Shown here one piece after another: positions 1,195 to 13,584 of a DNA stretch of 14,066 nucleotides. The stretch is from an uncultured Fibrobacterales bacterium (GTDB taxonomy: Bacteria; Fibrobacterota; Fibrobacteria; Fibrobacterales; CAWVXU01), in contig CAWVXU010000070.1 of assembly GCA_963934255.1 (NCBI GenBank), forward strand, positions 1 to 14,066. The letters are read 5' to 3'. The notes under the pieces were generated by a model. That model did no database searches, was not told the DNA's origin, and was given only the letters and a program-made list of their open reading frames with translations. Within the stretch, counting starts at the first letter, position 1; every line of letters starts with the position of its first letter. Made by a program: the position numbers and the translations under genes.

Positions 1195-3549
1195 CTAATT
1201 TTTACGAGCGCAACACCTAAATGATATAGATGGGCTTTTGTGAAAATTAACGGCTGACTGACTAACAGTCTCTAAAATATGAACTTCATTCAGTCTTGAA
1301 GTGATTGTGGCTTCAAGACCCGCAAAATAAACTTGAGCAAAATGAACAGAGTCACGGCGGTACTCATTATAATCAACAGGGAAGTCGGTGTACAAAACCT
1401 CAGCTCCATCAGTTATTTTAAACAATAAAATTTGATCCGTATAAGAGGCAACATCAAGAGTGTCATTGATGGCAACTTTGATAACCGTATCAAGCAAGAG
1501 TGAATCCATGCCTAATAATACTCGTCCATCATTTAAGCGAACTAAGGTTGTAGTGGTATCTACGTACCTGGGTATTTGACGAATCGGGAAATTTGAAGAG
1601 CGACATTGAGCAATTCGGTTAAGCGCAGAGGCTGAAACCCCATCGCCTTGAGCATATGTCCCACCTTTGAGGCTATAAGGGCTAGAAGCTTCGATACTAC
1701 TTGACCTCACCCACTCTTGATAATGGCCAGCCATATCATAAACACCTGACTCAGTGACACATCTCGTGGAGCGAGTGTTAATTTGGCTATGATGTGCACC
1801 ATCGCTATCATTGGTGCCATGATTACAATCACTAAAAAGTAAACCCTCAGAGGTCGCCGTTGATTCGTATTCGACAAGACCATAAAGCCTGGCACTATCT
1901 TGCCCGATGCAGGTATTTTGCCATACTTCATCACTACAAAGATCATAAGTCCAATCACCTAAGCTACTTTTAGCTTGACAGAAATCACTTGCGTCTTGAG
2001 CTCGTATATCTGTTTTAAATTGAGTCGGGTTGGCAGTATTTTGTCCGACTCGACGCTCTAATTGGTCGATACAATAAATTCCTAAAGAATCTTGAAGCGC
2101 AACCATATTTAACTCAGGACAAACATCACTTAACAGCGGAGCCACAGCTTGAGATATGGATCGAATGAAACTTTTGTACCCAGTTCTATCAACAGCTTGA
2201 ACTTGAACTTCAACACTTCTACCAGGTATGAAATAATCTAACGTGTCTTGGAGCCAGGCTCTTGGCTTCGCGCTTGAATCATCACCATCTAAATTAATTA
2301 ACGTGTCATTTAATGTTTCAATAATCGCTGTTGTTGTATCAAAACCTTGATAACTTGAATCAATTTGAGTGACTATATAATGGGAAATCCCTGAAGGATC
2401 ATTAGTTATTGGTAGCCAATAGAAAATTCGACGACTCGCATCTACCGAATCAGGTTTCAGTTGAAGATTGTCTGCTAGCTCAGGACGGGTTGTATCTGTA
2501 GTTGAAAACTGCATAACCAATGGACTGATAAATGAATTGCTTTCTAGATCCAAAGTGTTGCCTAGTGAGTCAAGAGCGATAATAGATAATTCATAAGTCC
2601 TGATTGGAGTGAATCCATCAAGGTAAAGCACAAATTCATCATCGGCTTCACCTGAACGACCACTATCTAAAATTGCAATATTTAAGGTTCCATAGTCATT
2701 GCCATCGTTGGGCTTGTTAGTAATGTAATCGGAGTTGTCTCTAAGAGGCTGACCATCATTTTTGGTTTTGATGAAACTCTCTGTTAAAACATGCTGGGAA
2801 TCAAGTTGACTTGAGCTAGAGTCTAGTTGCCATTTGACCGCGCTCAGCTCACTCGGCGCCGAGAGTTGATCAACATAGCTGACGGAAATATTATATCCAA
2901 AAATCATCCCATTTTCACGATTAGGAATACGCGAGAACAAATCCTCAGGGCGAGTCCAAGAGAGCTTGGCGAATTCAGGGCCGGTTTCAACTCGGACGCC
3001 CACTTGGTCGGCAGGAAAGACATCTTGAAGGTAAAATTTGGTAGGGATTCTAGCTGCTCGAAAGTCAATGCCAAAGTCGGCCCATACGACCAAAGTTATA
3101 GATCTTGTGCCGCGTTCATTGGCTTCATTAATTAATTCGGAAGTAATCTCAAAGCGTGGTAATTCACCCTCTTTGATGGTTGGCTTGAATAACAAAATAT
3201 CTTTGGACCAGCTAGTCTCATTGTAATCTTTGAGGTCACTCGAACTCGGTGTCTCACGCTCAAGAAAGGCTTCTTGAGCTTCTGCATCTAACACTACCCA
3301 CACATAGTATGACTTGAACTTATCAGGCTCAGTAAGCATCGCTACTGGCTCATCCCAACTCACAAAATACTTTGACTCTTCACCGAGTCCTTCAAATTCA
3401 ATGCGAAGCCCTGGGATCTCCCGTTCAAGGGCAAAGTTGTCTTCTTTATTTTTATCAGTGCAAGCAGACAGGAAGCTTAAAACTAATACACACATCCAGC
3501 CCAATATGACTTGATGGAATTTGGATTTTATTAGATTAATAGCATTCAT
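1195..3549 (-). CDS. Large lipoprotein with FN3/Ig-like beta domains and a C-terminal FGE-sulfatase (SUMF1/C-type-lectin fold) domain
   Basis: Start moved from 3639 (which lies in the rpmA terminator loop) to ATG 3549. Signal peptide with lipobox LSAC (Cys codon 3462-3460). FN3-like segments LSWTRP..GYNI..YELSIIALDSLGN and YW..SGISHYIV..VQVQAVDRTG. FGE-like motifs CPELNMV, YCIDQLE, LCSDEVWQNTC, CVTESGVYDMAGHYQEWV, LKGGTY, SFRCC. Confidence 0.75.
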   Translation of the reverse strand: MNAINLIKSKFHQVILGWMCVLVLSFLSACTDKNKEDNFALEREIPGLRIEFEGLGEESKYFVSWDEPVAMLTEPDKFKSYYVWVVLDAEAQEAFLERETPSSSDLKDYNETSWSKDILLFKPTIKEGELPRFEITSELINEANERGTRSITLVVWADFGIDFRAARIPTKFYLQDVFPADQVGVRVETGPEFAKLSWTRPEDLFSRIPNRENGMIFGYNISVSYVDQLSAPSELSAVKWQLDSSSSQLDSQHVLTESFIKTKNDGQPLRDNSDYITNKPNDGNDYGTLNIAILDSGRSGEADDEFVLYLDGFTPIRTYELSIIALDSLGNTLDLESNSFISPLVMQFSTTDTTRPELADNLQLKPDSVDASRRIFYWLPITNDPSGISHYIVTQIDSSYQGFDTTTAIIETLNDTLINLDGDDSSAKPRAWLQDTLDYFIPGRSVEVQVQAVDRTGYKSFIRSISQAVAPLLSDVCPELNMVALQDSLGIYCIDQLERRVGQNTANPTQFKTDIRAQDASDFCQAKSSLGDWTYDLCSDEVWQNTCIGQDSARLYGLVEYESTATSEGLLFSDCNHGTNDSDGAHHSQINTRSTRCVTESGVYDMAGHYQEWVRSSSIEASSPYSLKGGTYAQGDGVSASALNRIAQCRSSNFPIRQIPRYVDTTTTLVRLNDGRVLLGMDSLLLDTVIKVAINDTLDVASYTDQILLFKITDGAEVLYTDFPVDYNEYRRDSVHFAQVYFAGLEATITSRLNEVHILETVSQSAVNFHKSPSISFRCCARKN

Positions 3550-3623
3550 GATTGACAATTTAGAAATTTTTATCCGACTAAACCCGCCGAGATAAGGGTA
3601 TTTCAAAATGATTCTATAAAAAC

Positions 3624-3649
3624 AAAAAAGACCACTCATCAGAGCAGTC
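3624..3649 (-). terminator. Rho-independent terminator after rplU-rpmA
   Basis: Minus-strand RNA GACUGCUC-UGAU-GAGUGGUC (8 bp, two G-U pairs) followed by UUUUUUGUUU. Confidence 0.85.
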
Positions 3650-4572: not shown

Positions 4573-6294
4573 CTAATATTCACCTTGGAACCTTATACAG
4601 TAATCTAAAAACTCATCCGCTTGCATTGGCTTGGCGTAATGGGCGCCTTGCACAACTTCACAACCTAATTCTTTTAGCTTTTCAACTTGCTTCATGTTTT
4701 CAGCACCGTCAGCGACGACTTGAAGAGATAGACCTTGAGCGAGCTTAATGATACTTGTAATAATTTTTTGATCCACTAAATCATCCACTAAGTCTTTTAC
4801 AAACACTCGATCAATTTTCAAATAATCTAACGGCAAATTTTTGAGATAAGCTAGTGAAGAATACCCAGTCCCAAAATCATCCAAGGCAATATGATAACCT
4901 TCTGATTTAAGTTTTTTAAGAGTATTAATTGACTTTTCCTGAGAACTCATGAGATGCGTTTCGGTGATTTCTAGGATAAACTGAGCTGGCTTGACTCCAT
5001 GGACATGAATCGCATGTTGCAAAACATCGTATAATGATAGTGTTTCAAATTGGCGTGGACTCAGGTTGACGCTCATTAATATATCGGCCAAACCCTTAAG
5101 TCCTAATTGGCTGCAAAATTTAGCTGACTCTTCAATGACCCATTTGCCAATGCTGACAATTAAAAAGCTTTGCTCTGCAAATGGAATAAAATGCAAGGGA
5201 GCAATTAGTCCGCGTTCGGGATGGTTCCACCTTATTAAAGCCTCACACCCGTGGATTTTCATTGTGTCTAAATTAATTTGTGGCTGAAAATAAAGTTCAA
5301 ATTGACCTTGCTCCAGGCCAATCCTAATTTCGCGCTCGAGCTTGGCTTTTTCTTGAACATTCTCACCCATTTTAGCAGAAAAATACTGAAATCTTCCTCT
5401 TCCTAAATTTTTAGCTGAATACATTGCTGTATCAGCTTTTTGTAATATTATCCTTCCCGTTGTTCCGTCTTCAGGAAAAACAGAAATACCTATTGAAACA
5501 CCCACACCTACTTCATTATCTTCAATGATCCATTTAGATTTAAAACCTTCAATAAGTTTAGCAGCAACTTGTGCAGGCTGATCTTCTTTCACAATATTAT
5601 CAATTAAGATGATAAATTCATCACCACCAAAGCGACCCACAATATCATTTTTACGAAGTACTCTTTTTAGATAATCTGAAACTCTCTTGAGCAGCTCATC
5701 ACCTATATTATGACCATATTTATCATTGACTTCTTTAAAGCGATCCAAATCCAAAAACATGATGGCAAATCTGGTTTTCATTCGAGTAGATTGAGCAACA
5801 AATTCCTCCAACCTTTGATTGAAATAGCGTCTATTCATAATCCCAGTTAATGGGTCATAATTTGCTAATTTCTGCAAATGTAACGCTTGTGACTTGAGTT
5901 CGTTTTCTCGGCGATAATTATTGGTAACGTTGTGAATATCAATATATGTAAAGTTTTCATCTTTAATTTTGATAGGATAAATTGATATGGATTGTAGAAG
6001 TTGTTTTTCTCTTTCCAAAAGATCAAACAATGGAAATGGCGTATCAAGGAGTCTTGTTGCAATTTTTTTGGATAACCCAAATTCTAAACATTTGATAATC
6101 GTATGGTGAATTCGTTTTCCCACCATATCAGGAAAAGCGGCCATGAATGTATTACCTTGAATTGCCACCCCACCATATAAATGCTCTTTTAACCATTCAT
6201 TTACATAAAGAATTTTTAATTCTTTATCAAGTATAATGACACCACTCTCAAGCGCATCAAGAGCCAAAAGAGAAAGTTCTTTTAATTGTATCAC
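4573..6294 (-). CDS. PAS-GGDEF-EAL c-di-GMP signalling protein
   Basis: PAS-like N-terminus (LDALESGVIILDKELKILYVN). YDPLTGIMNRR, DLDRFKEVND, RKND I-site, RFGGDEF. EALIRW, SVNLS, LEITE, DDFGTGYSSL, LKID, VVADGAE. GTG start 3 nt after the cheC-like stop, with a GGAG SD. Confidence 0.95.
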   Translation of the reverse strand: MIQLKELSLLALDALESGVIILDKELKILYVNEWLKEHLYGGVAIQGNTFMAAFPDMVGKRIHHTIIKCLEFGLSKKIATRLLDTPFPLFDLLEREKQLLQSISIYPIKIKDENFTYIDIHNVTNNYRRENELKSQALHLQKLANYDPLTGIMNRRYFNQRLEEFVAQSTRMKTRFAIMFLDLDRFKEVNDKYGHNIGDELLKRVSDYLKRVLRKNDIVGRFGGDEFIILIDNIVKEDQPAQVAAKLIEGFKSKWIIEDNEVGVGVSIGISVFPEDGTTGRIILQKADTAMYSAKNLGRGRFQYFSAKMGENVQEKAKLEREIRIGLEQGQFELYFQPQINLDTMKIHGCEALIRWNHPERGLIAPLHFIPFAEQSFLIVSIGKWVIEESAKFCSQLGLKGLADILMSVNLSPRQFETLSLYDVLQHAIHVHGVKPAQFILEITETHLMSSQEKSINTLKKLKSEGYHIALDDFGTGYSSLAYLKNLPLDYLKIDRVFVKDLVDDLVDQKIITSIIKLAQGLSLQVVADGAENMKQVEKLKELGCEVVQGAHYAKPMQADEFLDYCIRFQGEY

Positions 6295-6297
6295 TAG

Positions 6298-6921
6298 CTA
6301 TGACTCCATTTTGTTTTGAATCAACCGAGTCAATGGATCAATTATATTCTGAAAATCAGAATGTGTTTGGACAAATATCAACTCACTCAATGCATTTTTA
6401 TCAGCTAATTCAACACTCACTTTAACAAGAAGATATAAATCTTCTTTGGCGTCTTTGCCCATCATTTCATTTAAAATACTTCCTAGTGTGCCCTCTAAAT
6501 ACTTTGGAAGTCTCGAAGTTAACTTCAGATCTAAACTGCTTTTTAGAACTGCTAAAACACCATTGGTTATCTCAGAACAAAGGTCAACTATCACATCTTT
6601 TTCAGTTTCCGTCATATACTCACAGTGAAATTCATCATTGAGTAAATAACGAACTAATCTAATACTTGATTCCTGATCAATAATCAAAAACCCCTTACCC
6701 TCTAATTCACCTATAAATTCATGGTAAATGGCGACTACGTATCGAGTCACCCCACCTAATTCTTGAGCGATCTGATTGAGCGGACAAAAGTTCGCTGAAG
6801 CAACTGAGAGTTTGACTTCAGAGTCAACGAGTTGACTTATTTCTTCAGTGGCATGCCCTAGACCAAGATCAAACAATTCTTTGGTTTGGTCTAAAATAAG
6901 TTCTGCAGTCACTTTAATCAT
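6298..6921 (-). CDS. CheC-like family protein with degenerate phosphatase motifs
   Basis: About 200 aa with two CheC-type repeats: DQTKELFDLGLGHATEEISQLV..VKLSV, FIGELEGKGFLI, and TETEKDVIVDLCSEITNGVL..LP. Confidence 0.8.
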   Translation of the reverse strand: MIKVTAELILDQTKELFDLGLGHATEEISQLVDSEVKLSVASANFCPLNQIAQELGGVTRYVVAIYHEFIGELEGKGFLIIDQESSIRLVRYLLNDEFHCEYMTETEKDVIVDLCSEITNGVLAVLKSSLDLKLTSRLPKYLEGTLGSILNEMMGKDAKEDLYLLVKVSVELADKNALSELIFVQTHSDFQNIIDPLTRLIQNKMES

Positions 6922-7137: not shown

Positions 7138-8652
7138 CTAGTTAATCAAAAATTGTTCTTTTAAGAAATCAAGGTCAAGTTCTGGGTAGAGAGGGTATTT
7201 TGCTAAAAGCAATTTAACTCGACCTAAAGCTTCTTCTTTAACCGAATCAGCAATTAAATAGTTGATTTTAGAAGGTTTACCAGCATTAGGCCCTGAAGCG
7301 ACAACACCTGATTGGGTATTTTCAATGACAAGCTTCACAATCGAAGCAATTTCTTTCATATCGTCAACGCCCATTCCAAGAGATGTCATTGCAGGGGTAC
7401 CAAGACGAAGCCCTGAAGTGATCATTGGTGATAATTTATCAAATGGTATGCCATTTTTGTTACACGTGATCCCACAATCCCGCAGCGCAGAAGCACCTTG
7501 ACGGCCAGAGACACCAAATGGCGTCACATCTACAAGCATGAGGTGGTTTTCTGTCCCGCCAGTTGTAATGACCATTCCTAGATTTTGAAGTTCAGCAGCA
7601 AGAGCAGCAGCATTATCTACAACATTCTGAGCATATTCTTTAAAATCATCAGATAAAGCTTCTTTGAAAGCAACTGCTTTAGCTGCCATCACATGAGAAA
7701 GTGGCCCCCCAAGTACTAATGGACAACCTTTATCCATGAATGGTCCAAATTCTTTCGTAGAAAGAATGATACCACCACGAGGTCCACGTAAAGTTTTGTG
7801 AGTAGTTGATGTTACAACATCGGCATATCCAAATGGAGACTCTTCGCCTTTAAAGACTCCACCAGCTACTAGGCCCGAAAAATGAGCCATATCACACATA
7901 AGTACTGCACCCACTTTATCTGCGATCTCACGCATGCGTTTGAAATTAATTGCGCGAGGGTAAGCTGAGTAACCAGCAATGAGAATGAGAGGTTGAACTT
8001 CAATCGCTTGAGCTTCGATTGCATCATAATCATAAAGCCCCGTCTCTGCACTGACACCATGGCTGTGTGCGTCAAACATTTTACCGGAAACATTATGCCT
8101 ATAGCCATGAGTCAAATGACCACCAGCTGCTAGATTTAGACCTAAAATCGACTGATTTCCCAGCTTAGTGCGGATTGTCTCCCAATCTTCTTGAGAAAGT
8201 GCGTCCGGATTTTTCACTTTTAAAATTTCTAGTTCAGGAACTTGAATACGAGCCTGAAGGATTCCCCAGAAGGCTACCATATTGGCATCTGCGCCTGAGT
8301 GAGGCTGTACAAATGCGTGCTCTGCACCAAAAAGTTCACAAGCAAGTGCACAGGCGCGAGCTTCGATTGAGTCTACATTGTCACAACCCTCGTAAAAACG
8401 AGCATTGGCAAAGCCTTCTGCGTATTTGTCTGTGAGTAAGTTACCCATAGCCAGCTGAGTTGAAAGTGAACAATAATTTTCAGAAGCAATCAGCTTAAGG
8501 TTAGAACGTTGATCGTCAAATTCTTGAACAATCGATGATACTATCTCAGGTGCTACTTTAGCGACAGAAGTGAGGTTTGCAACATAGGCAACCATCTCAG
8601 TGTTTATTTTCTCTGATGGGGTTTTAGCCAAATAAGTATTTAATGCGTTCAT
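7138..8652 (-). CDS. glyA: Serine hydroxymethyltransferase, long form (~504 aa)
   Basis: LKLIASENY, DKYAEG, VQPHSGADAN, GGHLTHG, DMAHFSGLVAG, PLP-lysine motif STTHKTLRGPRGG, SGLRLGTPA. Start set at ATG 8652 because the GGAGA SD overlaps the TTG at 8664. Confidence 0.97.
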   Translation of the reverse strand: MNALNTYLAKTPSEKINTEMVAYVANLTSVAKVAPEIVSSIVQEFDDQRSNLKLIASENYCSLSTQLAMGNLLTDKYAEGFANARFYEGCDNVDSIEARACALACELFGAEHAFVQPHSGADANMVAFWGILQARIQVPELEILKVKNPDALSQEDWETIRTKLGNQSILGLNLAAGGHLTHGYRHNVSGKMFDAHSHGVSAETGLYDYDAIEAQAIEVQPLILIAGYSAYPRAINFKRMREIADKVGAVLMCDMAHFSGLVAGGVFKGEESPFGYADVVTSTTHKTLRGPRGGIILSTKEFGPFMDKGCPLVLGGPLSHVMAAKAVAFKEALSDDFKEYAQNVVDNAAALAAELQNLGMVITTGGTENHLMLVDVTPFGVSGRQGASALRDCGITCNKNGIPFDKLSPMITSGLRLGTPAMTSLGMGVDDMKEIASIVKLVIENTQSGVVASGPNAGKPSKINYLIADSVKEEALGRVKLLLAKYPLYPELDLDFLKEQFLIN

Positions 8653-8670
8653 TTGTTTCTCCAAATTAAA

Positions 8671-8747
8671 TCTGACCCAGACACACGATCAAATTGAATT
8701 AAGGCTTCCCTAAGGTTGTTTCCTAAAACGTGTCGGTTGCAATTGAT
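8671..8747 (-). ncRNA. ZMP/ZTP (pfl) riboswitch, divergent, in the glyA leader
   Basis: RNA: AAUUGC-AACC-GACAC-GUUUU-AGG aaacaa CCU-UAGGGAA-GCcuuAAUU-linker-UGAUC-GU-GUGUC-UG-GGUCA. It has the P3 stem, the terminal CUGGG signature and a 5-bp pseudoknot GACAC/GUGUC. glyA is a known target of this class. Confidence 0.8.
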
Positions 8748-8951
8748 ACTAATTTAGATTTTGAGGTTCATTTTAGGGGTAATTTAGGGAGGTAAAATGA
8801 AAAAAGCTTGCCACATTGAAGCGCCTCATTCATTTCAGATATGATAAGTCACTTACCCAGCTAACCTTCTTGGGTATTTGAAAAATCGCTAAGTCTATGG
8901 TATTTAATCACTTAGAAGCGCAGGAGTAAAACATTGATGTGGGCCAACTAC

Positions 8952-10181
8952 TTAAGTTGAATATTCGGCATTAATTCTCACATACTCATAAGATAAATCT
9001 GAGGTCCAAATTGAAGTACTTGCATCACCAAGATCTAAGGAAATGTCGATGACAAATTCTTTTTTTAAAGCAATTGCTTCTAATTTGTCGCTTGGAGTTG
9101 AGGCTGGCTCGCCTGCCATCAGCACATAGGCGTCATCGTATTTAATTGAAATTTTCTCTGGATGAATAGGAACTCCAGTATTTCCTATTGCCGCTATGAT
9201 TCGTCCCCAATTTGGATCGTTTCCAAACAACGCGGTTTTGACGAGTTTAGAATTGGCAACATATCGAGCAATCAGGCGAGCTTCTTGGCGACTTCTGGCC
9301 TGGCGAACTTTAATTTCTACAAATTTGGTTGCACCTTCACCATCACGGATGATTTTCTGAGCGAGATCCGCAAATACATAAAAAATGGCTTTTCTGAATT
9401 CACCTTGCTCAGCCAAAGATAAATCTTCATATTTGATTCCTGAACCTTTGGACGACATCAAAAGAGCCGTATCATTAGTTGAGGTATCGCCATCTACGGT
9501 AATTGAGTTAAAACTATCATCAACTATCGCTTTAAACTCGGCTTCAAAATCAGCACTTAGCTCAACATCTGTGGTGACAAATGCCAACATCGTCGCCATG
9601 TTCGGGTGAATCATCCCGGACCCTTTAGAGGCACCAGCAATTCTAATTTCGCCTAAGTGAGTGTCAATCTTCACTGCAATTTCTTTGCGGCAAGTGTCAG
9701 TTGTTAATATCGCCTCAGCAAAAAGTCCACTTGCATCCAATGTATCTGTGTCTTTGGAAAGCTGATTTTTGAGTTGAGGAAGAGCGTTTTTAATGGTTTC
9801 CATCGGGAGTTGTACGCCGATAATTCCCGTTTGACATATTAGTATACTTCCGGGCTCGAGATCAAAAAAAATTTCAGTCAATTGCACGAGCTCTTGAGCA
9901 TTCTCCATCCCCAAGGTCCCGGTACATGCGTTGGCATTACCTGAGTTAATCAAGCACCCCCGAGTCATAGAGTTTTCACCTAAAATTTTTTGACTTAAAA
10001 CCACCGGTGCCGCCACCACTTGGTTTTGAGTAAATGCTCCAAATGTTCTAACATCTTCATCAGAAATAATAATAGCCAAATCATGCTTCTTGGAAGCTTT
10101 GATACCTGCTTTGATACCTGCAACTTGAAAGCCCCGAGGCCAAGCGACACCTGAATTTTCAACAATATGAAACTGATTCAT
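8952..10181 (-). CDS. argJ: Glutamate N-acetyltransferase / ornithine acetyltransferase ArgJ
   Basis: FTQN..AAPV, INSGNANACTG, TGIIG, AILTTDT, autocleavage motif KGSGMIHPNMATML, VDGDTSTNDT, DGEGATK, LVKTALFGNDPNWGRI, YVRINAEY. ATG 10181 follows a GGAGA SD (ORF track uses TTG 10193). Confidence 0.97.
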   Translation of the reverse strand: MNQFHIVENSGVAWPRGFQVAGIKAGIKASKKHDLAIIISDEDVRTFGAFTQNQVVAAPVVLSQKILGENSMTRGCLINSGNANACTGTLGMENAQELVQLTEIFFDLEPGSILICQTGIIGVQLPMETIKNALPQLKNQLSKDTDTLDASGLFAEAILTTDTCRKEIAVKIDTHLGEIRIAGASKGSGMIHPNMATMLAFVTTDVELSADFEAEFKAIVDDSFNSITVDGDTSTNDTALLMSSKGSGIKYEDLSLAEQGEFRKAIFYVFADLAQKIIRDGEGATKFVEIKVRQARSRQEARLIARYVANSKLVKTALFGNDPNWGRIIAAIGNTGVPIHPEKISIKYDDAYVLMAGEPASTPSDKLEAIALKKEFVIDISLDLGDASTSIWTSDLSYEYVRINAEYST

Positions 10182-10248
10182 CAGTATCTCCAAAATATTT
10201 TTCCAAAAAATTAGTCTTTATTTGGTGAAAAGGTATATTTGAAGGAAT

Positions 10249-10831: not shown

Positions 10832-11809
10832 ATGATTAATCTTTACAAAGGTGATGATGCCGTTTCTAGAAAAAAAGCTCTCAACAAAGATGTTGAGAAA
10901 TTTCTAGGTACGCTTATTTCTGACCCTTTTAGTAAAGAGGTTATTCAATGCCAGGATACTTCGTCAGAAACTCCCGCACTTGATCGTTTTTTTCAATCAG
11001 GCAGTGGAAATTCAATGTTCGCCGATAAAAAGGCAATTATACTTAAAGGCGTTGAATCACTTGGGGTCAACCAACTCAAAGAGTTGAGCAACTTTTTAAA
11101 AACAGCTTCTGAGACTAATGGTTACTTCTTTGAAGGGGCCAAAGTAGATGCTCGGAGTGAATTTTCTAAAACCATCAAAAAAATGGGTGAAATTAAAGAT
11201 TTCAAAGCTCCGCGCGATTATGAATTACCCAAATGGGCAATGGGAAGAGCGCGCGATTTTCAATTTAAGATGCATGAGTCCGTCGCCAAGCATTTAATTG
11301 AACTCACCGGACCCGATATTCCTCGAATTGACAACGAATTCGAAAAACTTCGCAACTTTGCCCCAGATTCTTCTGAAATTTCCATTGATATGATTCGAGA
11401 AGTGGTCGTTTCAAATAATGAAGGCAATATTTTTGACTTAATTAACGCTTTTGGACATCGAAATGCACTTGATTTTGTCAAAAACTTCCGTTTGATTGAA
11501 AATGCGAGTAAACCTGGAGCACAACTTGGATCTAGTATGATTGTTCAATTCATGAATCATGTCCAGACTCTGATTATCACCAACGGTTTATTAAAAGAGG
11601 GTGTGGCACCCAATCAAATTGCCAAAGAAATGAAAATCCACGAATACTTATTTACCAAGATTAATAACGTACCTGCTCAATCGGCCAAAAGACCCTTAGC
11701 CCTTTTAGAACGAATTTTGGTTCGTCTTTCTGAAATTGATGCTCAACTCAAAGATGGTACAATCAGGAATAATTTGCAGTTTGAAACCGCTCTTGTGGCG
11801 ATGTTATAG
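10832..11809 (+). CDS. holA: DNA polymerase III delta subunit
   Basis: LYKGDD N-terminus, SMFADKKAIILK clamp-binding segment, LIELTG.D...IDNEFEKL, NIFDLINA, LSEIDAQLKDG. Typical length. Confidence 0.85.
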   Translation: MINLYKGDDAVSRKKALNKDVEKFLGTLISDPFSKEVIQCQDTSSETPALDRFFQSGSGNSMFADKKAIILKGVESLGVNQLKELSNFLKTASETNGYFFEGAKVDARSEFSKTIKKMGEIKDFKAPRDYELPKWAMGRARDFQFKMHESVAKHLIELTGPDIPRIDNEFEKLRNFAPDSSEISIDMIREVVVSNNEGNIFDLINAFGHRNALDFVKNFRLIENASKPGAQLGSSMIVQFMNHVQTLIITNGLLKEGVAPNQIAKEMKIHEYLFTKINNVPAQSAKRPLALLERILVRLSEIDAQLKDGTIRNNLQFETALVAML

Positions 11810-13584
11810 TGAAAACTCTGTTACAATCTTTATATAAATCCGCCTTCACAGCACTTTTTGTGTGTTTTAGCTTGGCGTTTTCTTGGCCTGTAGCTGTGGA
11901 TCACCCCGTAAATGCATTTATCAAAAAAATGGAACTCAAAGGCCTCATTGACATTCAAGGTTTAAATACTTTGCCCTTGCAATCTGGTGTCATCCAAGAT
12001 GCATTGATCCTACTTGCAAAGAAATCATCTCAACTTGCTCCCCTACAAAGAAAAAAACTGAGGTATTTTTTAATTGAATACGGGATCACAAAAGACCCTT
12101 CGTTATACCCCTTAAGGTATAAAGAGAGGTATAGTAAAATAAAAACTTCAGACGCTGGATCAACAAGAAGATCGGAGCAAAAGTCATTTAGTCGAGATGT
12201 AAAAAGCATTCATTTTTCCGGTTTTTATGATTTGGACTATGCTCAATCAGACTCAAATGATGCACAATATGGTACACTATGGGATATAATTGGAGGGCAA
12301 TTTGAAGGACAATGGGGTGAAAACATCTCTTATCAAGCCCAAGCAGGTGTCATCAGAGACTATTCTAGCGAAGCTAGATTTAGTGACACCTATGACCCCT
12401 CGCTCGGCCTTCCTTATAATACTCCCGATAATCGCCTAGGTGAGGGCGCGGTTTTCACTAATGCTTCTCAAGATGCTTTTCGCGCAATATTCTCTTGGAC
12501 ACCGGATATCTTTACTCTTGAATTTGGCCAAGATTGGAATCAGTGGGGGCCAGGGATTGAACAGCACTCAGGAATTTCGTCTTCAGGGTATTTGTGGTTA
12601 CAAGATTCTCTTAATAACGATCAGATCATCGGTCCCAATAATAGCCTAACAGACTCCAGTCTCTACACTCCCTATTGGAAAGGTGTGCGAAGAGGATATT
12701 TTAAGCCAGGGCAAGCGCCTCCCATGCCACAATTTCGAATAAGAATGGATTGGGGTAAAGTTACCTATCTTCAATTTGCTGCACAAAGACAAGGTCTTAT
12801 CCACACTCCCAAGGCCATGCTTTTTGGACACCGTATTGAAGTCAAGCTCCATGATTGGAAGCTCGGTATTTATGAGCTTATTTCTACATCGAGAGAAGAC
12901 AACAGTTGGACTTATTGGACTCCTTTAGTCCCCTATTTCGTTGCAGAGCATCACACAGGTGATCGTGATAACACGACTCTAGGTCTTGATGTTGATTATA
13001 AAATCATCAACAATTTAAGAGCTTATGCCGAATTATTCCTTGATGATATGTTGTCTCCTACTGAAATTCACAAAAACTATTGGGGTAATAAGTACGCCTT
13101 GACCATTGGCTTTGAATGGATTGACTTCTTTACCTGGGGGAATTCATTTCAACTGGAATATGCTCGCGTAGAGCCCTGGCTTTTTTCCCATGTGACTGCA
13201 GATAATCAATTTCAAAATCATGGTTTCCTTATCGGTAGCTCACTTCCACCTAATTCCCATCAAGTTTTTAGTTCCTACACCCAAAACATATTTGATATCC
13301 TAGCAATCAATTTAGCTTACACTTGGCAGCAACATCAATTGTACGATAGAGGAAGCTCTATCTTAGATTTACACAGTGAAGAATTTGATTCTGCCACTAA
13401 GGTATTTCTCGGCGAAAAACCAAAAACGTCTCACATTGTAGATGCTAGTGTAGTCTGGGCACCATGGTATTATAGTGACTTTGAAGCTGGCTTGAGATAT
13501 GTTAATAATTCAAACCAAGGTGTTTTAGCGAACCAATCATCTGAAATTAATACAATTTGGCTCAAAACCTCAGTAAGATATTAA
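11809..13584 (+). CDS. Capsule assembly Wzi-like outer-membrane beta-barrel protein
   Basis: Sec signal peptide, helical N-terminal region, GQDWNQWGPG, FGHRIE, GDRDN, YAELFLDD, EYARVEPW, IGSSLPPNS, C-terminal aromatic residue (KTSVRY). GTG overlaps the holA stop. Confidence 0.7.
   Translation: MKTLLQSLYKSAFTALFVCFSLAFSWPVAVDHPVNAFIKKMELKGLIDIQGLNTLPLQSGVIQDALILLAKKSSQLAPLQRKKLRYFLIEYGITKDPSLYPLRYKERYSKIKTSDAGSTRRSEQKSFSRDVKSIHFSGFYDLDYAQSDSNDAQYGTLWDIIGGQFEGQWGENISYQAQAGVIRDYSSEARFSDTYDPSLGLPYNTPDNRLGEGAVFTNASQDAFRAIFSWTPDIFTLEFGQDWNQWGPGIEQHSGISSSGYLWLQDSLNNDQIIGPNNSLTDSSLYTPYWKGVRRGYFKPGQAPPMPQFRIRMDWGKVTYLQFAAQRQGLIHTPKAMLFGHRIEVKLHDWKLGIYELISTSREDNSWTYWTPLVPYFVAEHHTGDRDNTTLGLDVDYKIINNLRAYAELFLDDMLSPTEIHKNYWGNKYALTIGFEWIDFFTWGNSFQLEYARVEPWLFSHVTADNQFQNHGFLIGSSLPPNSHQVFSSYTQNIFDILAINLAYTWQQHQLYDRGSSILDLHSEEFDSATKVFLGEKPKTSHIVDASVVWAPWYYSDFEAGLRYVNNSNQGVLANQSSEINTIWLKTSVRY

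Follow-up and report, generated by a model that had tools for sequence, protein, structure and literature searches.

The leader of the glyA gene in the window, the whole 14,066-nucleotide stretch of DNA from an uncultured Fibrobacterales bacterium that was analysed, carries a divergent ZMP/ZTP riboswitch aptamer, which is likely ZMP-sensing and likely acts as a translational ON switch; we put the probability of this reading at roughly 0.72. The aptamer corresponds to a full-length match to the ZMP/ZTP (pfl; RF01750) motif on the minus strand (8750-8668), and it ends 16 nt ahead of the glyA start. Two-digit position numbers follow the C. beijerinckii switch, as taken from the supplement oligos of PMC11894091, unless another numbering is named. 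The aptamer, its parts and its surroundings are as follows.

8668..8750, minus strand: ZMP/ZTP (pfl) riboswitch aptamer (Rfam 23.5 bits; lineage model 41.3 bits)
8669..8695, minus strand: P3 with its loop; 9 bp, 8695-8687 with 8677-8669; loop 8686-8678, GUGUGUCUG
8730..8734, minus strand: pseudoknot 5' strand GACAC, in which A8731 places a rare A at position 26
8684-8680, minus strand: pseudoknot 3' strand GUGUC in the P3 loop (sequence, pair counts)
8739..8744, minus strand: P1 5' strand, with G8740-C8704 and C8739-G8705 (sequence, pair counts)
8735..8738, minus strand: AACC of the conserved P1 extension, with C8736-G8708 and C8735-G8709
8713..8724, minus strand: P2 hairpin, AGG 8724-8722 with CCU 8715-8713, loop AAACAA (alignment)
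8704..8711, minus strand: J2/1 and P1 3' strand, AGGGAAGC (alignment)
7138..8652, minus strand: glyA, serine hydroxymethyltransferase of the PRK13580 type (NCBIfam 746.1 bits, cut-off 735)
8751..8756, minus strand: candidate -10 hexamer TAAATT (positional comparison with relatives)
8659..8662, minus strand: Shine-Dalgarno-like GGAG, 6 nt before the AUG (sequence)

The gathering threshold of RF01750 is 39 bits, and an Rfam search of the window at gathering score gave 0 matches. When a 361-nt region was searched against the Rfam families at a relaxed threshold, a sole RF01750 match was obtained at 8668-8750, covering model positions 1-86 of 86 with 23.5 bits (E 0.066 over all families), and a search of the 2.67-Mb genome gave this match alone (E 0.118). 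Since 23.5 bits lie below the cut-off, the aptamer falls outside RF01750 by gathering threshold and is classed as a variant, and the poor score against the standard model is the one that had been foreseen. A covariance model built from 35 glyA leaders of the phylum, with the window excluded (lineage model R1), gave a significant full-length match of 41.3 bits, with a genome-wide E of 1.9e-8 that is to be read as rough, and the second-best site in the genome reached 12.6 bits. The full-length match and the R1 score bear out that the glyA leader contains a divergent ZTP aptamer. When folded without the pseudoknot, the aptamer was no better than shuffled sequences (z +1.39).

The letters and helices described in the original prediction (P3, its loop, the pseudoknot, ACCG, P2 and a bulged P1) were all confirmed, on the minus strand. 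The P3 core pairs UGAUC (8691-8687) with GGUCA (8677-8673) as had been stated, but the stem is longer, extending to 9 bp. GACAC (8734-8730) and GUGUC (8684-8680) form the J1/2:L3 pseudoknot through five Watson-Crick pairs, starting with G23-C93. In the RF01750 alignment, non-pairing marks are confined to P1 and P2, and C8735 is taken as a C-G pair with G8709. P1 consists of two G-C pairs, to which four A-U pairs can be added only across a 3-nt bulge (8703-8701); this optional AAUU extension, which pairs with 8700-8697, did not form spontaneously in constrained folds. The GC/GC core of P1, its non-canonical extension and C21-G45 are present, and the P2 loop holds the conserved adenines A8721 and A8716, the latter being the A-minor A; both helices are short. 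C8735 occupies position 22 (U22 in C. beijerinckii), in the middle of ACCG, and its P1 partner is position 44.

In an alignment of homologous aptamers, 14 tabulated core columns never vary among the 73 full rows other than the window, once 6 partial or misaligned ones have been dropped; the aptamer agrees with every one of the 14, and the ligand-contact letters U8679, G8678, G8686 and C8680 likewise fall in unvarying columns and match them. Two features of the motif are missing, the U at position 22 (ACUG) and the pseudoknot pair G26-C90; the latter is replaced by A8731-U8683, with pairing kept. The roles of A34/A38 are assigned as reported in PMC12126503, and the ligand contacts as reported in PMC12126503, 10.1101/521930 and 10.1101/2024.09.13.612887. 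As the aptamer retains the U that contacts the ligand, the Gs that stack on it and the A-minor A, an altered ligand specificity appears unlikely, and the aptamer would likely still sense ZMP/ZTP, although its affinity may possibly be weaker than usual. The form of P1 and P2, which had been put forward as a peculiarity, turned out to be ordinary. Two-pair P1 helices occur in 14 of the 39 leaders examined and three-pair ones in 13 of 39, so that a short P1 is usual in the phylum and the bulged extension optional; the P2 sequence is highly variable across the phylum, and P2 was flagged as weakly supported or conserved in the original motif paper (Weinberg et al. 2010, PMC2864571).

The aptamer is located between argJ (8952-10193) and glyA, 5' of a purine/one-carbon gene. 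The likely start of glyA is the ATG at 8652-8650, its stop lies at 7138, and its N-terminus agrees with that of the ortholog in G001, the only other genome of the same family. A sigma-70 scan found no promoter on the minus strand; TAAATT lies approximately at the position where relatives have a TATTTT-like hexamer, and the transcript is thus taken to start near 8745. The GGAG motif begins 7 nt past P3 and is predicted to fall within a weak hairpin (8666-8651), and a terminator search of the leader found none. The genome (GC 38.6%) carries homologs of purE, folD and purH, and fhs and pfl gave no match with the fragments used. The leader lies outside the coverage of RNA runs X14, X17 and X18, which have no bearing on its expression. 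Elsewhere in the window, a CheC-like gene followed by a GGDEF-EAL gene (4573-6921, minus strand) stands directly downstream of glyA on the same strand, and two long open reading frames have no NCBIfam match, one of 814 aa (1195-3639, minus strand), with an N-terminus that looks lipoprotein-like by eye, and one of 591 aa (11809-13584, plus strand).

Close glyA relatives and the marine runs that contain the stretch point to a likely marine member of Fibrobacterota. The aptamer is spanned in full by contigs of four runs from four studies, the source sample perhaps being one of them, and the contig of a fifth run reaches 8737. The single aptamer position that differs among the contigs of the five runs is 8702, in the P1 bulge, in 3 of 5, and this agreement rules out an assembly error. 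In run X7, 18 of 200 positions differ in the upstream region 8752-8951 versus 0 of 98 in 8653-8750 (p 0.001; one haplotype), and in run X1 the differences number 3 of 200 upstream and 1 of 98 in the leader. The signal from the single X7 haplotype suggests that the leader is under purifying selection.

In G001, an ACUG aptamer of 50.6 bits directly precedes the glyA ortholog, which is 72% identical. Among 151 genomes of the phylum, 41 had an RF01750 match at E <= 0.05, giving 42 matches in total; 41 of these are ACUG aptamers and the remaining one lies inside a coding sequence. An SHMT N-terminus, read by eye, follows 39 of the 41 ACUG aptamers. The glyA leaders of relatives, whose alignment the original prediction had proposed as a check, proved conserved and covarying. 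In an 80-row alignment, fitted to the lineage model and enriched in ACCG, so that its figures are to be read with the caution that related rows inflate covariation, 97.7% of pseudoknot cells and 99.2% of P3 core cells were paired, three pseudoknot pairs had two-sided changes, and the whole-structure covariation score was reached by 0 of 500 shuffles. Controls with slid partners paired at 39-46%, versus 86% for the real structure.

Several further observations were made among these relatives. In the own-phylum glyA leaders L207-L247 the ribosome site follows closely behind P3, and they look as if they share a translational expression platform. The P3 3' strand can form at least 5 pairs with bases just before the AUG in 16 of 37 phylum leaders; in L227, where P3 has GGGU, the spacer has ACCU in place of GCCU. 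A recurrent TATTTT(T/G) hexamer, in some leaders TATTTTTG, lies about 13-15 nt upstream of the L207-L247 aptamers; it resembles the TAnnTTTG promoter element of Bacteroidota, and is a candidate promoter consensus for the phylum. A pattern search of the large sister family f3 of the same order (151 genomes) found no convincing ZTP aptamer in the members searched, with a single chance-like match, and the 35 f3 members checked have a more distant glyA (44-50% identity); the riboswitch and the glyA type thus appear to go together within the order. Another glyA leader (L114:1318-1416, plus strand), in which ACGG replaces ACUG and P3 otherwise resembles that of pfl, gave a weak match of 14.4 bits and is possibly another rare variant.

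The U-to-C change at position 22 converts a U·G pair of P1 into C-G; in the 80-row alignment this 22:44 pair (columns 15-101) is UG in 56 rows, CG in 13, UA in 1 and other in 9. A metagenome scan for letters other than U at position 22 returned at least 120 stretches, of which 80 loci were listed and 39 of these 80 passed through cmscan. Among the 39 loci checked, 15 ACCG aptamers were above the Rfam cut-off, with 42-63.8 bits, and one further reached 38.5 bits; the aptamer of L099, at 42.7 bits, is a 16th above the cut-off. Four picked candidates (L277, L296, L304 and L321) were not detected by cmscan. These 15 metagenomic aptamers above the cut-off lie upstream of purE, fhs, folD, pfl, a PFL-activase-like gene or purH. 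When the 38.5-bit aptamer and L296 are counted with the 15 above the cut-off, 17 of 17 ACCG candidates are followed by a gene of the standard purine/folate set: purE-type in 5, folD in 4, fhs in 3, purH in 2, and pfl, a radical-SAM PFL-activase-like gene and glyA in 1 each. As ACCG aptamers pass the cut-off and precede standard genes, ACCG neither causes the low score nor marks a new gene set, and U is not strictly required at position 22, as the 16 C-bearing aptamers above the Rfam cut-off demonstrate.

The view of ACCG as a lineage-specific sign of altered specificity was not supported, given at least 16 such aptamers above the cut-off, 15 of them before standard genes. C8735 forms a C-G pair in P1, and the contact reported for this nucleotide (10.1101/2024.09.13.612887) is through its phosphate: in F. 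ulcerans numbering, the phosphates that hold the Mg2+ ion are those of U16, which maps to 8735, and of C35. A C22:G44 pair built by Kelly and Strobel in the C. beijerinckii switch folded as a P1 pair and was reported to restore termination, without ZMP, presumably by stabilising P1 against pseudoknot misfolding (PMC11894091). C remains a minority at position 22, with 4 of 109 aptamers in the genome samples. A pattern search of the own phylum accepting either letter gave 43 genomes with U and 4 with C (64 rows from 296 genomes, 16 rows being judged chance by eye and one a duplicate). Other either-letter searches gave 14 U, 2 U with one chance row, and 46 U with a duplicate register and a chance row, and a pattern search of 151 genomes around G159 returned nothing. 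A strict covariation in which every ACCG would have G44 was rejected, since 9 of the 16 above the cut-off have G44, against 4 with U, 2 with A and 1 with C. Where position 22 read G or A, the metagenome matches were dismissed, on pairing and by eye, as chance or mis-registered ACUG aptamers, and pattern matches in viral contigs, used for tuning the pattern, were mostly chance, with 0 of 20 loci checked reaching the gathering score.

The original prediction called the pseudoknot rewired, which overstates the case: register and topology are standard, and what stands is that one pair, G26-C90 replaced by A-U, is truly rare. Within the 80-row alignment, A24-U92 (22 cells) and C27-G89 (41 cells) are common, and the 26-90 pair (8731-8683; columns 19-138) is GC in 72, GU in 3 and AU in 2 of 77 cells. 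A26-U90 occurs in 3 of 109 sampled aptamers, those of the window and of its order-mates G002 and G005; the latter two also have ACCG, at a locus of 67% GC, and G001 has G·U at 26-90. The window and G002/G005 amount to two distinct sequences, too few to show a coupling of C22 with A26-U90. In the consensus library of Kelly and Strobel, according to the supplement oligos of PMC11894091, G26:C90 is held fixed. An assignment to the 'weak' pseudoknot class of these authors was rejected, as their oligos vary 24/92 and 27/89, not 26/90. A search of literature titles and abstracts found none on natural ACCG or A26-U90 variants, which the founding biochemical and crystal-structure papers may cover. The aptamer of G002 (L033:3029-3121, minus strand), identical in G005, is an ACCG aptamer before glyA with the pseudoknot GGCAC/GUGCC and an extra hairpin inserted in P2; it was missed by Rfam and scores 28.2 bits with the lineage model, and in G005 it occurs twice, at two contig ends.

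On the analogy of the family, ZMP would accumulate when formyl-folate is short, bind the aptamer and raise glyA expression; it would pair with U8679 and be sandwiched by G8734 and G8678 through stacking, while phosphates of the backbone would hold the Mg2+. Bound ligand would lock the pseudoknot and P3, while C8735-G8709 may stiffen the top of the very short P1 and A8731-U8683 may weaken the pseudoknot, so that sensitivity is perhaps lower. Control is likely translational, and ON, because a terminator is absent; since the ribosome site moreover lies 7-20 nt after P3, the start region is likely covered by a refolded structure when no ligand is bound, the weakest step of this scheme, and the ligand would prevent such refolding. 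In the candidate OFF state, the P3 5' strand and loop (8693-8683) would pair with codons 2-5 (8648-8639) around the Shine-Dalgarno hairpin. Longer transcripts are predicted to have a free fold with this codon 2-5 pairing, which excludes the aptamer.

In the relatives, forcing the aptamer fold made the ribosome site cheaper to open, by a predicted average of 2.9 kcal/mol versus 1.0 in shuffled controls, and 27 of 37 leaders, which as kin are not independent, gained more access than the controls did on average. The gain often stems from a P3 3' strand that is able to pair just ahead of the AUG. The GCCC/GUCC-like stretch that many relatives have there is absent from the window leader, in which no ribosome-site gain was predicted (-1.5 kcal/mol), and folds at three lengths and four temperatures gave differences that were small and varied in sign. 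Folds from 8760 contain a 10-bp helix that joins 8758-8749 to the Shine-Dalgarno region; this helix was set aside, the start being placed near 8745; it would become relevant again if the transcript starts further upstream.

The missing prediction of a ribosome-site switch could also reflect a decaying remnant, drifted in an AT-rich genome (GC 38.6%), with poor ZMP binding or no glyA control and a constitutive glyA. The low Rfam score, the two contiguous pairs of P1, the three of P2 and the single chance-like match in 151 f3 genomes fit such a history, which we nevertheless judge unlikely: the changes are paired, not random, with A-U at two pseudoknot pairs and C-G at a third, and those of P3 are paired too (an A-U pair and a stem extended to 9 bp). 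Every invariant column is kept, strain variation avoids the leader, and the two-pair P1 is shared by 14 of 39 leaders. It is quite unlikely, again, that the aptamer binds ZMP/ZTP normally and acts on glyA by another route, be it Rho-dependent termination, RNA stability or transcription-translation coupling. Only about 16 nt of leader remain after P3, which is short for Rho loading, relatives trend to ribosome-site opening, and the alternative fold over codons 2-5 exists; in favour of such a route stand the absence of an intrinsic terminator, folds without a clear ribosome-site switch and a 9-bp P3 that would be hard to invade.

A change of ligand is a further alternative, whereby U-to-C and the new pseudoknot would have adapted the pocket to a different purine nucleotide, for example AMP or IMP. 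C8735 adjoins the pocket, and ACCG and A26-U90 coincide in three genomes of one order, whether their DNA is AT-rich or GC-rich. Such retuning is nonetheless highly improbable, as no change affects U8679, C8680, G8686, either stacking G or the A-minor A, the contact reported for the position-22 nucleotide is a phosphate, and the gene is a standard glyA as in the ACUG relatives, just as 17 of 17 genes behind ACCG candidates are standard.

A ZMP-sensing aptamer that likely controls glyA translation remains the preferred reading. Within it, one may speculate, with considerable doubt, that the window and G002/G005 represent a retuned ZTP subtype in which C22-G44 offsets the weaker A26-U90, with the G·U of G001 as an intermediate, and which lacks a terminator, has a clearly shifted ZMP threshold and is missed by Rfam; the A-U pair is kept in a genome of 39% GC and at a locus of 67% GC, so AT drift alone is insufficient. 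The Rfam cut-off misses real ZTP riboswitches, as in the window and G002/G005. Either pyrimidine, and not U alone, is accepted at position 22, and the nearly fixed G26-C90 can be swapped in nature. G-C in most aptamers, G·U in G001 and A-U in the window and G002/G005 offer a natural series relating pseudoknot strength to ZMP sensitivity in switches without a terminator. The results give no pointer to a new ligand, gene link or pathway, and their importance is modest.

In comparison with the ZMP/ZTP pfl motif (RF01750) as described in PMC2864571, where glyA is among the five commonest genes named, the aptamer has the same P1-P2-P3 arrangement, the same J1/2:L3 pseudoknot register and all invariant nucleotides; it differs in its score of 23.5 bits, U22 to C, G26-C90 to A-U, a G-C to A-U change in P3, a 9-bp stem, a P1 of just 2 contiguous pairs and the lack of a terminator. 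The pfl switch of C. beijerinckii, as reported in 10.1101/521930 and PMC11894091, has A24-U92 and the 22:44 pair in P1 in common with the window, but possesses a terminator that invades P3, absent here, and has U22·U44, G26-C90 and G27-C89 where the window has C-G, A-U and C-G, respectively. Among own-phylum aptamers, 43 of 47 have ACUG with G26, unlike the window, and many of the leaders have a pre-AUG stretch able to pair with the P3 3' strand, which the window lacks. With the glyA leaders of its own phylum (G001, G052, G116 and others) the window nevertheless shares the same gene, a short leader with a candidate promoter just upstream, the same short P1, C27-G89, an extended P3 and a ribosome site close behind P3.
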